Source: a virus
Lineage: Duplodnaviria > Heunggongvirae > Uroviricota > Caudoviricetes
Direction: 5' to 3' (one strand)
IMG/VR virus record: IMGVR_UViG_2880329822_000001
Coordinates: 64,001-101,118 of that record
DNA: 37,118 nucleotides
Both the position numbers and the translations under genes were made by a program. The notes beneath the pieces are model-generated. The model was not told the DNA's origin. It ran no database searches and saw only the letters and a program-made list of their open reading frames with translations. Shown piece after piece: positions 8,886-19,014 of this stretch; the stretch's first letter is position 1, and each line of letters starts with the position of its first letter.

Positions 8886-8920
8886 AAACAATTTGTTTTC
8901 TTGTTGGTTTAATTATCGCT
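8886..8920 (-). promoter_or_regulatory. Motif-B promoter/operator cassette (first of about 8 copies: 8886, 9888, 10835, 11193, 13530, 15943, 18159, 18854)
   Basis: Plus-strand AAACA-N3-TGTTTTCTTG-W-TGG-N-GTTATTWTCGCA, which on the minus strand reads as an extended -10 TGnGAWAAT followed by CAAGAAAACA-N3-TGTTT just before the RBS. Confidence 0.8.
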
Positions 8921-9075
8921 ACGCGCATCAGGTGTCCAAGCGTTCTGTTCAGGCTTCTGGTGGCCGCCAGGGTGTCGGAGGGTTGTTCGGTAGCCTGGCG
9001 GTAAGAGGTGGGTGTTTTTAGCCTGCGGGAAACAGGATGGTCATTTGAGACCACCGGCATTGGTGGCCTATATAG

Positions 9076-9336
9076 TTACTTCCTATGTGCTGCAACGAAC
9101 TCTTTCACGGTTTTTAGCGCATGATAAAGGCCGACGATATCCGAACCATAGTCGATGCAAACGGGGGAAAGTGAAGTCTTCCCGTCATGTGATGAATAAG
9201 CCGATGTGGTAGTTGCGGGATAATCGTGGCGATAGCAGACCGCAGTCTTGGGGTGTCGCAGATAAGCGATTCCTCTTTCAAGATCGTAGATTGCGCGTTG
9301 CAGGTCACGCTCCTGTGATCTGGTTAATTTTGCCAT
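9076..9336 (-). CDS. Hypothetical protein, 86 aa
   Basis: RBS GAGAG; in an operon with 9351-9632. Confidence 0.75.
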   Translation of the reverse strand: MAKLTRSQERDLQRAIYDLERGIAYLRHPKTAVCYRHDYPATTTSAYSSHDGKTSLSPVCIDYGSDIVGLYHALKTVKEFVAAHRK

Positions 9337-9350
9337 CGTAAAAATCTCTC

Positions 9351-9632
9351 TTAATGCAGCAATGCGATATCGATTGAATCACCTGAATCTGTCACGCGGA
9401 TCATCAGCATGGCGAAGGCATTTAATGGGTAGCCGGCGTGCCAGTACGGGAAGCGGTCATCGCGCATGAAGTCGGCAATGTCATAAACACTGTCCTGATA
9501 ATGAAAAAAGCGAGTATCGGTCTGCTTATCGAAATCGACGTGATCCATTTCCTGCTGCTCTTCAGGTGACAGGTCGAGCCAGGATTCCAGCCATACATTT
9601 TCTGCTTTCGTGGAGATGGTGAAATCAGTCAT
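9351..9632 (-). CDS. Hypothetical acidic protein, 93 aa
   Basis: RBS GGAGA; overlaps the upstream ORF stop. Confidence 0.8.
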   Translation of the reverse strand: MTDFTISTKAENVWLESWLDLSPEEQQEMDHVDFDKQTDTRFFHYQDSVYDIADFMRDDRFPYWHAGYPLNAFAMLMIRVTDSGDSIDIALLH

Positions 9633-9867
9633 TTTTCATCTCCATAACCTGTTGGTACAAGTCAGTCCATGACCATTCATCATCGGGATGTGGATGAGCA
9701 ATGGTGAAGTTCTGGCTTGCGATGTTTAGTGCGGCTTCCAGCTCAACTGCGATATACGAGACGGGTTCTGAAAAACCATCATTCTCAAAACAAGCGATCA
9801 TATGGTTATTCAGAAAAACAGCTTCAGCACCGCCATCAGTTTGTATAAAGACCAGTTTGTTAACCAT
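9625..9867 (-). CDS. Hypothetical acidic protein, 80 aa
   Basis: RBS AAGGA; motif-B cassette at 9888-9950. Confidence 0.8.
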   Translation of the reverse strand: MVNKLVFIQTDGGAEAVFLNNHMIACFENDGFSEPVSYIAVELEAALNIASQNFTIAHPHPDDEWSWTDLYQQVMEMKND

Positions 9868-9994
9868 GTGCGCAATCCTTATCGTGTAAACATTTTGTTT
9901 TCTTGATGGTGTTATTATCGCAATTCAGACAAGGTAGAAAACATTTTGTTATCGGGGATAAAAAATGGCGCGGGATACACGCCATTTGAAGAGA

Positions 9995-15938: not shown

Positions 15939-16030
15939 ACTTAACTCCATTGTTTTCTTGATGTGGTTATTTTCACATACAAGAAAAGGCAGAAAACAAA
16001 TTGTTAAAGGCCACTGCTGTGGCCTTAAAT

Positions 16031-16402
16031 TTATTCAGCAAGCAGCGTTTTCATCATTACTTGCATCTCGCTTTCCCGCTCTTTGGCGATACGTGCATTC
16101 TCTTTTTCCACAAGACGCTTCAATCTCTCCATCGTGGCAAAAGACGCTCGACGCCTGGCGCTCTCATCAATAGCGTGAGCATCCATTGAGATAAGGAAAC
16201 CAAAGTACTGAAAGCCCATGCCGACGAAAATCTCATAGAGCCTTGAGTCACACTCGAACAAAGCGATGCCGTTCCGAACCTCAAGTAGCACTCCCTCTTC
16301 CATCAGCTTCGCCAACCCTCTGTCCCATACAGGGCAGTAGCGATAATGGAAACCGTCAAACAGTGCGGTACAAAACAGTGAAATGACATTTCTAAACTTC
16401 AT
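16031..16402 (-). CDS. Hypothetical protein, about 123 aa
   Basis: RBS GAGAGAG; motif-A site at 16442; hairpin AAGGCCAC-tgct-GTGGCCTT downstream. Confidence 0.75.
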   Translation of the reverse strand: MKFRNVISLFCTALFDGFHYRYCPVWDRGLAKLMEEGVLLEVRNGIALFECDSRLYEIFVGMGFQYFGFLISMDAHAIDESARRRASFATMERLKRLVEKENARIAKERESEMQVMMKTLLAE

Positions 16403-16460
16403 AATTTCTCTCTCAGTAATCTGTGCCAATTCTTACACAAAATAAGTAAGCATTTACCTA

Positions 16461-18146
16461 TCATTTAATGCGTTTGAAAACGTACACGCTTACAGTGATC
16501 CCCGTGTCCTCAAACTCATCAGTGAATGACTTGCCTTTGGCGTAGACGTAATTGTCCAGCGTCATCCAGTTTAGAATTGATGAGTCTCCCGGTAATACTG
16601 CTACCAGGCGCCCACCGACTTTCAGATGCCCCAGCCCGACCAGCGTGTGCTCTTTGTGGCGGCCGAGAGAGTAGGGTGGGTTCATGACAATCTTGTCGAA
16701 TTGATAACCTGCATTATCGGCAGACCATTTCATGAAGTCACAGCAGACTGTGTTTACGTAGCCTTTGCCAACAAGGATGTCAGCGAAGAGCGGGGCAATC
16801 TCAATACAGGTGACGTCTTCAGGATTGGTCTCGATATAAGCAAGCAGATCTCCGCGACCAGCTTCCGGCTCCAGCAATGTTTCACCAGGTTGCAGTTCAA
16901 TAGCTCTGGCTACGTACTCCGCAATTATCCGCGGGGTAGGGTAGAACTGGTGCGATTTTGCGTCCGGAATTAACCCTGTGGCCACAATTGTATTGAGTGT
17001 ATGTCCAACCTCATACGGAAACCGCCAATGCTTATTCTCCTGCACGCCGCCAATAAAGGTCAGTGTACGCTCCAGCTCATCCGACTGGGTTTTCTGTAGC
17101 TTTGAATCGAAAAAGTACCAGGCGCCATTGTCTTTACTAAATCGACCGTCACGAAGAGCGGTACGAACAGGTTCGGAGATCGTCTTCTGGATTAACCCGA
17201 ACTCTTTTGGTGCTCGTGTTTTTGGTGCAGTACGATACGGCGCCGGGATTGCTGCAGGCATACTGTATGCCAGTACTTCGTTCAGCTTCCAGGCCACGTC
17301 AGGATGTATCTCGAAGTGAACGTTACCATTTTTGAACATCTTCACGCGCATCAGGTTTCCATCGACATTCATCCAGTCACCGGTCTGGCAGTCGTTTGCA
17401 CGGTACGCAGCTGATAGCATCTCCGTTGTGCGGTTGATGGTGATGAACTCTTTGTGCGCGAAGAAATGAAGCATGACGCGCAGGTCGTCGATGTAGTCCT
17501 CTTTGCGGTAGTTCACGCTGACGCTGTCCCGCCAGAATTCAGATATGCAGTTTGCAATGATCAGACGCTCACTAAATCCATTCGTTTTGTTAGTCTTGTG
17601 TGCTGGGCTTAGCGCCTTGAACAACCCGTACACTCGCTCGGAAAGATATTTGTGTCTGTCATTCAGCAGATTGAGCATTGTTGGAATGACCGTCCCCGCC
17701 TTGAACTCAGGCACGCCGACGAACTCTTTCACTCTCATCTGATAGCCGGTTCTGTCTGTTTTTGTTGTTTCCTGCTTCCCTTCGATAAACTGTTCGCGCC
17801 ATTCATCCCGACGAGCAGCAGGCATTATCAGCAAAACATTGGTCATATCCGTGACCTTCTTCCAGTACTCGGCCCAGATATTCTGTTTCACCCATTCCAG
17901 GTCGATCTTATCGATACAGAGTCTGTTAAAGCGAGTACGCTCATCGTCAGGACGGTGATTTAACCGCAGCAGACGATTGATCATGCTATGTCGTTCGTCA
18001 CCATAAACGAAGTCGTGGACTTGGTTCATAAATACGATCTCTTTCTCGCATTCAGCTACGATTTCGTGAATAACCCCCATTTCATGCCTGAATTCGATAT
18101 GAGCGTTTGTACTGGAAGTATCAACGATTGAAAGATCTGTATTCAT
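16461..18146 (-). CDS. N6-adenine DNA methyltransferase with a long N-terminal (DUF4942-like) region
   Basis: QFYPTP, SAM motif LLEPEAGRG, catalytic IVMNPPY; N-terminal KMFKNGNVHF. Confidence 0.85.
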   Translation of the reverse strand: MNTDLSIVDTSSTNAHIEFRHEMGVIHEIVAECEKEIVFMNQVHDFVYGDERHSMINRLLRLNHRPDDERTRFNRLCIDKIDLEWVKQNIWAEYWKKVTDMTNVLLIMPAARRDEWREQFIEGKQETTKTDRTGYQMRVKEFVGVPEFKAGTVIPTMLNLLNDRHKYLSERVYGLFKALSPAHKTNKTNGFSERLIIANCISEFWRDSVSVNYRKEDYIDDLRVMLHFFAHKEFITINRTTEMLSAAYRANDCQTGDWMNVDGNLMRVKMFKNGNVHFEIHPDVAWKLNEVLAYSMPAAIPAPYRTAPKTRAPKEFGLIQKTISEPVRTALRDGRFSKDNGAWYFFDSKLQKTQSDELERTLTFIGGVQENKHWRFPYEVGHTLNTIVATGLIPDAKSHQFYPTPRIIAEYVARAIELQPGETLLEPEAGRGDLLAYIETNPEDVTCIEIAPLFADILVGKGYVNTVCCDFMKWSADNAGYQFDKIVMNPPYSLGRHKEHTLVGLGHLKVGGRLVAVLPGDSSILNWMTLDNYVYAKGKSFTDEFEDTGITVSVYVFKRIK

Positions 18147-18262
18147 GATTTCACCACTAAACAAATTGTTTTCTTGTTGGTGTTATTTTCGCAAAGCTAA
18201 AAAGGCATAAAATACAAATTTGAAGGCGTAAGAGGGGGGAATTAACCCCCTAAAACGATTTA

Positions 18263-18832
18263 TTAGTGGTCTGAGCCAAGCGTTTTATGTGGCTGTTTGT
18301 TCAGATCGTGGCGATGAGTCAACTCACGCATCATGTCTTCGAGACGACCTTTGGCAGCGTCCAACTGGTCAGCCATAGAGCCGAGCATTTGACGAACAGC
18401 CATTGGATCATCACTCTTCAGATCAGGCATATCAAAACCTGCATGGCCGGTCATCAGCTTAAAGGCAGAAATAAGCATAGCCAGCGAGGATTTCAGACGG
18501 GCAATTTCGCGATCTTTACTGGCGACAGTTTCATCAGTTTTGTTGACGGCAGGCGAATATTTCTGTTCGCTGAGCATCTCCAGCGTCGCCCGAAGTTTTT
18601 TGGAACGATCTTTTTCTGCGAGATATTCGCCACCGAAATAATGAGCAATACTCAATACTTCAATAGGCTCTTTAAAAATGCTTCCAAATTCCATTACAGA
18701 AGCAAAACGCTCTAAAGGTGATATTGATTCGTTGCCGACAACTGCACTAAGCATTTCCACAATGTTTTCTGCGCCTACTTCATTAATTACTTGCTGAGTT
18801 TTGACAATTCTGTCCTGGCATTTCTGGCACAT
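18263..18832 (-). CDS. Hypothetical coiled-coil protein
   Basis: Start MCQKCQD after motif-B copy 18854; helical heptad character. Confidence 0.75.
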   Translation of the reverse strand: MCQKCQDRIVKTQQVINEVGAENIVEMLSAVVGNESISPLERFASVMEFGSIFKEPIEVLSIAHYFGGEYLAEKDRSKKLRATLEMLSEQKYSPAVNKTDETVASKDREIARLKSSLAMLISAFKLMTGHAGFDMPDLKSDDPMAVRQMLGSMADQLDAAKGRLEDMMRELTHRHDLNKQPHKTLGSDH

Positions 18833-19014
18833 GCATTTTTCTCTTATGTTGTTTAACAATTTGTTTTCTTAATGGTGTAATTGTGACTTTGCAGAAGAGG
18901 TAGACAAACACCATATACAGGTAAAGCAAGCATGGAAGGTTAGAAGACACCTGGAGTAAGAAAAGCTAAGTGTGCTCTCAATCTCCATATATCAGCTCTT
19001 CTTATGCCAAAGCC

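Follow-up and report, generated by a model that had tools for sequence, protein, structure and literature searches.

A conserved promoter-operator module defines a replicon-wide regulon of SSU5-like phage-plasmids

Introduction

The stretch of DNA analyzed here (37,118 nucleotides (nt), hereafter the window) is 100% identical to bases 64001–101118 of pSAN1-1735, a circular, non-mobilizable replicon of 101,118 bp from Salmonella enterica serovar Anatum, and carries an array of small-gene cassettes headed by a short repeated palindrome that we call motif B. Motif B belongs to a promoter-operator module that is conserved among SSU5-like phage-plasmids and marks out a regulon spanning the replicon, and we lean toward reading it as the putative DNA operator for a repressor that the phage-plasmid itself encodes. 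The evidence obtained directly in this work comprises the anatomy of the module, its conservation, its restriction to the element and the silence of its transcripts in a related lysogen. Positions refer to the window unless marked “genome,” which denotes the whole pSAN1-1735 replicon.

The gene content of pSAN1-1735 (tail, capsid and terminase genes, a replication-gene block, RepB and ParA) makes it an SSU5-type phage-plasmid. Its kin include phage SSU5, the E. coli phage Cyrano and many plasmids of about 105–110 kb from Salmonella, E. coli, Klebsiella, Enterobacter, Citrobacter and Yersinia, and 786 plasmid records match the window. Such phage-plasmids are common in Salmonella, E. coli, Klebsiella, Enterobacter and Yersinia, and some of them carry resistance genes. 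Our literature searches returned nothing on the control of lysogeny in SSU5-like phage-plasmids, and no description of the motif B site in work on the regulation of SSU5, pHCM2 and pMT1. With a defined operator, the regulon can be mapped, its repressor can be sought, and one can test which small genes of unknown function are the first to be switched on after infection.

Anatomy of the Promoter-Operator Modules

The pattern AAACA-N3-TGTTTTCTTG, allowing up to two mismatches, occurs 10 times in the window as compared with 0.18 matches expected from dinucleotide shuffles. Exact matches lie at 8886, 9888, 10835, 11193, 13530 and 18159, and variants at 18854, 13576 (-), 12381 (-) and 28971. A repeat search grouped eight 73-nt modules with 60–75% identity (starting at 8885, 9887, 10834, 11192, 13529, 15942, 18158 and 18853), each heading a minus-strand cassette (Table 1). 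Read along the minus strand, a module runs from a -10 element through 8–9 nt (typically AACACCA) and CAAGAAAACA-N3-TGTTT to a Shine-Dalgarno sequence and a start codon, the gap between motif and start codon being 10–24 nt. A cassette is an autonomous unit of a promoter with its palindrome and from one to three small genes that are unrelated, in many cases closed by a terminator; several cassettes have a terminator-like hairpin behind them, and such hairpins also stand immediately upstream of modules 2 and 6.

The core of motif B is a 13-bp palindrome of the form 6-1-6, AAACAA-N-TTGTTT, with its center near +13 relative to the predicted start. The -10 element is TGCGATAAT in two modules, with TGGTATTAT, TGAGATAAT, TGTGAAAAT and TGCGAAAAT found once each. 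TGn precedes it in six of the eight modules (those at 8886 and 18854 lack the TG), giving these six the sigma-70 extended -10 arrangement of TGn, a -10 hexamer and a weak -35; a standard -35/-10 promoter scan did not pick up the modules. Second, inverted copies of the motif cover the -35 region (near -38) at 9939, 13581 and 15994, and in all three paired modules the center of the second copy is exactly 51 bp from that of the first. The copy at 15943 is classed as degenerate because its distal arm has been lost, and a 17-codon remnant open reading frame (ORF) follows it.

A preliminary description made from the window alone had reported a repeated motif shortly before minus-strand start codons, accompanied at a fixed distance by mostly extended -10 elements and by three inverted partners, together with an isolated inverted copy near 12384. 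The counts and gaps given above confirm these points, and the isolated copy was found at 12381–12398; the repeat it described is real, with the form of its core now corrected to the 6-1-6 palindrome. The same promoter core also occurs free of motif B at 13725–13756 (+) and 6774–6800 (+), heading plus-strand genes at 13757 and 6853; in these copies the -10 is followed by AACAC or AACCAC, and the TGn extension is seen only in the copy at 13725.

Table 1. Motif B modules, further copies of the motif and candidate binders in pSAN1-1735.
Feature	Position (strand)	Elements	Genes and remarks
Module 1	8885..8957 (-)	motif 8886-8903; -10 GATAAT without TG	heads 160-aa gene 8389-8871
Module 2	9887..9959 (-)	TGCGATAAT; operator 9888-9905; inverted copy 9939-9951 over -35	9625-9867, 9351-9632, probably 9076-9336
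Module 3	10834..10906 (-)	TGGTATTAT; operator 10835-10852	heads 99-aa gene 10511-10810
Module 4	11192..11264 (-)	TGCGATAAT; operator 11193-11210	heads 71-aa gene 10961-11176
Isolated copy	12381..12398 (+)	CCTGAAAACAAGTTGTTT on + strand	in 1.7-kb ORF-free stretch; kept in relatives; no promoter assignable
Module 5	13529..13601 (-)	TGAGATAAT; operator 13530-13547; inverted copy 13576-13593	13277-13519 and 12966-13283 (DUF5983)
Module 6, degenerate	15942..16014 (-)	TGTGAAAAT and CAAGAAAACA kept, distal arm lost; inverted copy 15994-16006	
Module 7	18158..18230 (-)	TGCGAAAAT; operator 18159-18176	heads 561-aa DUF4942/DNA methyltransferase gene 16461-18146
Module 8	18853..18925 (-)	weak -10; operator variant 18854-18871	heads 189-aa gene 18263-18832
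Backbone copy	28971..28988 (-)	TAAGATAACAATTTGTTT	upstream of nrdB; conserved in SSU5 and Cyrano
Backbone copy	genome 5303		before gene that follows SPFH gene
Backbone copy	genome 17950		before cobT-like/AAA/dnaE operon
Backbone copy	genome 33513		before ParA operon
Two backbone copies	genome 62978 and 63003		before small-terminase gene opening structural (late) operon
CI-like helix-turn-helix protein	genome 18511-18897		phrog_8; beside integrase
FljA-family protein	6013..6534 (+)		173 aa; PF03614, full length, E=6e-71; adjoins island
ParA partner	genome 32453-32806		117 aa; candidate binder
Weak candidate DNA binder	4178..4456 (+)		92 aa; sequence pattern compatible with ribbon-helix-helix

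Motif B Across the Replicon and Its Relatives

The preliminary description placed motif B in one island, at 8886–18871. The island cassettes do share it, but it also heads backbone operons: across the 101-kb plasmid there are 11 copies of the exact palindrome against 0.12 expected, and with up to one mismatch there are 21 sites heading at least 13 operons. Because the par, replication, nrdB and late terminase operons are covered as well, the regulon belongs to the replicon and not to the island. The backbone sites are at the same places in SSU5 and Cyrano, with an additional motif B before the DnaB helicase gene in Cyrano, and the motif is conserved in SSU5, Cyrano and relatives from Klebsiella, Enterobacter and Yersinia pestis. 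The proposed co-regulation of the cassettes is upheld in the sense of one conserved shared site.

Perfect 6-1-6 palindromes make up 8 of the 11 exact sites in pSAN1-1735 and 9 of the 11 in Cyrano. In a set of 153 distinct sites drawn from 15 sources, conservation is highest in the palindrome arms, which hardly vary, and exceeds that of the -10 element. The register between motif and -10 is fixed at 11–13 nt, and the distance from motif to Shine-Dalgarno sequence varies from 0 to 22 nt. Exact matches number 5–10 per SSU5-like contig vs. 0–1 per chromosome of about 5 Mb in three genomes that carry an SSU5-like plasmid. Since the host chromosomes are nearly free of the site, the factor reading motif B is most likely encoded by the element; a host transcription factor was rejected as the reader for the same reason. 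Scanning viral contigs with a 14-base pattern gave at least 118 matches, mostly single and at chance level.

A large palindrome with 17-bp arms (AGCCTGCTTCCGTATAT...) also recurs on the plasmid, in three copies (window ~21170–21235, genome 63054–63112 and genome ~32370), one of which lies just upstream of the motif B pair before the terminase gene.

Silence of Motif B Operons in a Cyrano Lysogen

To relate the motif to expression, we mapped it on the Cyrano sequence and used the normalized read counts of a Cyrano lysogen in lysogeny broth (LB) (PMC9928086, S1 Table), for which the prophage background median is 9.8 and the authors' cut-off for a moron, i.e., an expressed gene, is 49. The first genes behind the motif (CYRAN_1, 32, 47, 58, 70, 85, 87, 101, 105, 106, 108, 110 and 111) have 5.7–25.5 normalized reads, and 13 of 14 first genes fall below the cut-off. 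The exception is the ParA operon (CYRAN_28-30) at 50–89, with the ParA first gene at the cut-off itself (49.8). The silent genes have near-consensus extended -10 elements, and that promoters of this quality yield no transcript suggests that they are actively repressed at the level of the transcript. With the counterparts of the cassettes at background level in the lysogen, constitutive expression, which would have spoken against the regulated island first proposed, does not apply.

No RNA runs are listed that hold this stretch of the plasmid. Small shares of it occur in RNA libraries, and the contigs from four of these are 80–90% alike and multi-kilobase, which can neither show transcription starts nor prove transcription. 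No other Cyrano gene comes near the expression of CYRAN_43 in the lysogen (~7000 vs. a background of 10); its homolog in pSAN1-1735 lies outside the window at genome 20203–20775 (+) and encodes a 190-aa protein of unknown family, a candidate lysogeny factor.

A Putative Operator on Double-Stranded DNA

We infer from these data that a protein binds motif B, that it acts on DNA and that certain gene products of the element are candidates for it. A symmetric protein on double-stranded DNA is favored by the symmetry of the site, its register with the -10, the weakness of its RNA hairpin and the occurrence of copies outside transcripts, both upstream of predicted start sites and in a gene-free stretch. 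The hairpin is worth -0.7 kcal/mol and leaves the Shine-Dalgarno sequence uncovered, and with a loop of just 1 nt an RNA could not make use of the 6-1-6 symmetry; most sites nevertheless have complementary letters at palindrome positions 6 and 8, which RNA folding cannot select. A stable RNA hairpin or riboswitch-like leader was rejected on the strength of the hairpin energy, and a search for Rfam families in the window found none.

In the mechanism that we propose, the promoters are of the sigma-70 type and depend on an extended -10; the palindrome would occupy about +7 to +19 and, at some of them, a second copy would lie at about -44 to -32, a distance of 51 bp or some five turns of the helix. 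RNA polymerase would be blocked by a symmetric dimer on the palindrome or by a pair of dimers on either side of the -10. In this way some twenty operons might be kept off in the plasmid state, namely the small-gene cassettes and the operons for replication, nucleotide metabolism and late functions, and the par operon would be repressed only in part. Upon loss of the repressor, through infection of a naive cell or induction, the strong cassette promoters would be expected to fire at once. The immediate-early timing supposed in the preliminary description is a conjecture.

Which protein might fill this role was considered gene by gene. The CI-like helix-turn-helix protein has in its divergent control region (genome 18468) a different palindrome, motif A (GGTAAG-N2-CTTACC), which is present in about 15 copies before operons, directly abutting a -10. 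These operons include lysis, portal, phoH and thyX, and the copies in the window are at 2555, 10434, 16446, 20826 and 26823. As motif A stands in the protein's own control region, it is motif A and not motif B that is assigned to it, and motif A is probably the operator of the CI-like repressor. The 92-aa protein at 4178 is a weak candidate; the Cyrano lysogen expresses its homolog, CYRAN_117, and because the fold predicted for the 92-aa protein is uninformative (pLDDT, the per-residue model confidence, 66; no match in the Protein Data Bank (PDB)) the ribbon-helix-helix idea rests on a sequence pattern and a sub-threshold look-alike. There are two ParB_N proteins on the element, nothing linking either to motif B, and a Pfam search of the other candidate regulators found nothing.

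Several observations weigh against a DNA repressor at motif B. In the Cyrano lysogen no lytic gene is active, whatever motif lies upstream, and this includes the genes controlled by the other palindrome; silence is thus not specific to motif B. The transcriptome comes from Cyrano, a relative, and not from pSAN1-1735, and the +1 coordinates are predicted. For the binder there are candidates only; the immunity region of the CI-like repressor carries motif A instead, and the only annotated regulator beside the island is a protein of RNA-binding type.

That last protein, of the FljA family, underlies an alternative that we hold to be possible though improbable, namely that the motif is an RNA-level operator in the mRNA 5' leader, shortly before the Shine-Dalgarno sequence. 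Binding of the FljA-family protein would then block translation and destabilize the message, in the manner of FljA with fliC mRNA, and we would not put this course of events any higher. The protein matches PF03614 with E=6e-71, and its AlphaFold model (pLDDT 82) has two helix-plus-five-strand repeats, for which the best 50 PDB matches are all Hfq (template-modeling (TM) scores of 0.7–0.83), so that a tandem Hfq/Sm fold is predicted. Its gene belongs to the core set of SSU5-like elements and turned up in all relatives examined; the elements of Klebsiella and Yersinia pestis have it too, although a flagellin target is unlikely in these hosts. The promoter-proximal copies of motif B are all in the sense orientation and lie in the predicted leader, 0–22 nt from the Shine-Dalgarno sequence, and FljA is known to repress fliC post-transcriptionally (PMC2652032).

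An RNA operator would explain neither the 6-1-6 symmetry nor the existence of isolated copies and of those at -38. The hairpin is marginal, as given above, and the register of the motif follows the -10 rather than the Shine-Dalgarno sequence. It is transcripts themselves, and not just proteins, that are at background in the Cyrano lysogen, where the FljA-like gene is weakly expressed (18 in LB), and AAACAA-N-TTGTTT is absent from the E. coli K-12 fliC leader. We are inclined to doubt, without dismissing it, that the palindrome and its A-rich extension form the recognition site of the tandem-Hfq-fold FljA-family protein of every SSU5-like element. If they did, motif B would mark a replicon-wide post- or co-transcriptional regulon of a phage-borne Sm protein, and the Salmonella phase-variation repressor FljA would be a domesticated copy of such a phage regulator; an Hfq-like FljA homolog as binder would link this classic Salmonella regulator to phage biology. 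The FljA-family core gene also occurs in SSU5-like elements of non-motile hosts, and a homolog search of genome contigs reached only other SSU5-like elements and no chromosomal fljA.

It is also important to consider that the motif could be part of a phage-specific promoter class, either as the site of an element-encoded activator or as an element of the initial transcribed region, which we think unlikely. Under this explanation, itself just as unlikely, the silence of the lysogen would merely reflect the absence of that factor. The backbone copies (terS, DnaB, cobT, nrdB) have poor -10 elements that might need activation, the copy at -38 is near the position of a class II activator, and the promoter cores at 13725 (+) and 6774 (+) do without the motif. 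The position of the main copy, downstream of the start, is however that of a repressor site; a near-consensus extended -10, such as the island promoters have, normally needs no activator, and the motif is also found at the ParA operon, which is partly expressed.

The behavior of the ParA operon bears on a further alternative, a very doubtful one, in which the motifs are KorB-like sites for the 117-aa ParA partner that serve both partition and global silencing. Motif B stands in the promoter of the par operon itself, and no other motif B operon is expressed in the lysogen; this fits the alternative because such expression is expected for autoregulation, and KorB of RK2 offers a precedent. The protein also gave a weak language-model look-alike lead to centromere-binding ParB C-terminal domains, but its score of 0.90 is at a level that chance reaches. 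There is a single copy of the motif upstream of parA rather than an array of repeats, and Pfam and PHROG searches gave the partner no function.

Cassette Shuffling and Single-Stranded Promoters

The repeats had been proposed to serve as shuffling points for the cassettes. We compared window 7600–20400 with eight relatives, a small sample of related genomes, and found the ends of homology concentrated at gene boundaries of every sort. Modules hold 15 of the 110 non-genic endpoints vs. 11.4% of non-genic DNA as the expectation (p=0.45), so that breakpoints are not in excess in the modules and there is no sign of swaps ending preferentially at the motif. Matches confined to modules do occur between genomes (55–85 bp, 80–87% identity), which shows that the modules are paralogous and could recombine, and the truncated module 6 looks like such an event, its 17-codon ORF looking like a recombination scar.

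These same matches, eight paralogous stretches in all, speak for supposing that the modules are mainly recombination substrates, as in T4-type phages, with regulation secondary, which we consider highly improbable. The module at 15943 is truncated exactly inside the palindrome and gene content differs between relatives at several modules; yet modules are no richer in breakpoints than the remaining intergenic DNA, the motif also stands before backbone operons that are never shuffled, and the palindrome arms are conserved beyond what recombination needs. At Cyrano 85818–85900, a promoter of the same type has kept its upstream inverted copy and has AGCACTT..AGTGCT (motif-A-like) in place of the downstream motif B, which suggests that operators are exchangeable between modules. 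Direct repeats of 44 nt (91% identity) at 8258–8301 and 11536–11579 flank the block with modules 1–4 and are also present in relatives.

An analogy to hairpin promoters on single-stranded DNA (ssDNA), likewise suggested at the outset, did not hold up. The ssDNA folds of four modules compared with shuffles gave z = -4.8, -0.9, -2.8 and -0.1, and the module at 13530 is the sole significant fold (-14.5 kcal/mol, z = -4.8), with its -10 outside the long inverted-repeat stem; the plasmid, moreover, is non-mobilizable. The likeness to Frpo-type ssDNA promoters is limited to the inverted repeat flanking the promoter, in one module, and unlike in Frpo no long hairpin stem forms the -35 and -10 here and the replicon is non-conjugative.

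Comparison With Known Systems

In kind the arrangement is an ordinary one; what is new is its sequence, its symmetry and the +13/-38 geometry. Dispersed operators are familiar from phage P1, with its C1 operators, and from plasmid RK2, in which KorA and KorB operators are found at many promoters; the C1 operator is an asymmetric 17-mer. As with P1 C1, we are dealing with a plasmid prophage whose scattered operons share one short operator overlapping the promoter and are silent in the lysogen (here that of Cyrano). The site itself differs: it is a 13-mer with symmetric arms, placed at +13 and accompanied at some promoters by a partner at -38, and because of that symmetry the motif B regulon is an analog and not a member of the P1 C1 type; no C1 homolog was seen on the element.

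The resemblance to RK2 (incompatibility group P, IncP) is that two different palindromes of 12–13 bp, here motifs A and B, stand at many promoters of one replicon, and by analogy a link of the motif network to partition proteins, as in RK2, is possible. The sequences differ from OA and OB, the element is a non-mobilizable phage-plasmid and no KorA or KorB homolog is tied to the sites. The promoter early stem-loop (PeSL) cassettes of T4-type phages are alike in having a repeated sigma-70 early-type promoter, often after a terminator hairpin, that heads small genes in a variable region; in contrast to these, the modules described here have a protein-type palindrome downstream of the start, head backbone operons too and are not enriched in breakpoints. 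The FljA/fliC system of Salmonella shares the presence of a FljA-family gene and a motif in the leader beside the ribosome binding site, but no flagellin is involved here and the palindrome is of the DNA type with copies outside transcripts.

Cassette Proteins and Minor Features

The small genes behind the modules are unrelated, as had been stated, their proteins showing no similarity to one another; the further statement that they are often acidic applies to only 6 of 16, which are strongly so (isoelectric point 4.1–4.5). Pfam and PHROGs assign the island proteins to families of unknown function (DUF5983, DUF1456 below the cut-off and DUF2737) and, in agreement with the methyltransferase noted earlier, to a DUF4942/DNA methyltransferase of 561 aa. 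None of the island proteins matches a known anti-defense family in these two databases, which leaves the idea of an anti-defense island unsupported though not thereby excluded.

A mini-array at 14689–14780 (-) has two type I-E-like repeats of the CRISPR (clustered regularly interspaced short palindromic repeats) kind and a degenerate third, and no cas genes. Its 34-nt spacer has 13 nt in common with motif B; no protospacer was found in plasmid or phage collections, and the full matches are only to the same array in two other Salmonella plasmids. The gene-free stretch that holds the isolated copy of motif B (11265–12960, 1.7 kb with no credible ORF) has a strong strand skew (GC skew +0.21), is kept in relatives and could be a non-coding RNA or an origin. 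It contains three tandem 30-nt C/A-rich repeats (12226–12317), of which a fourth copy lies at 8986–9017.

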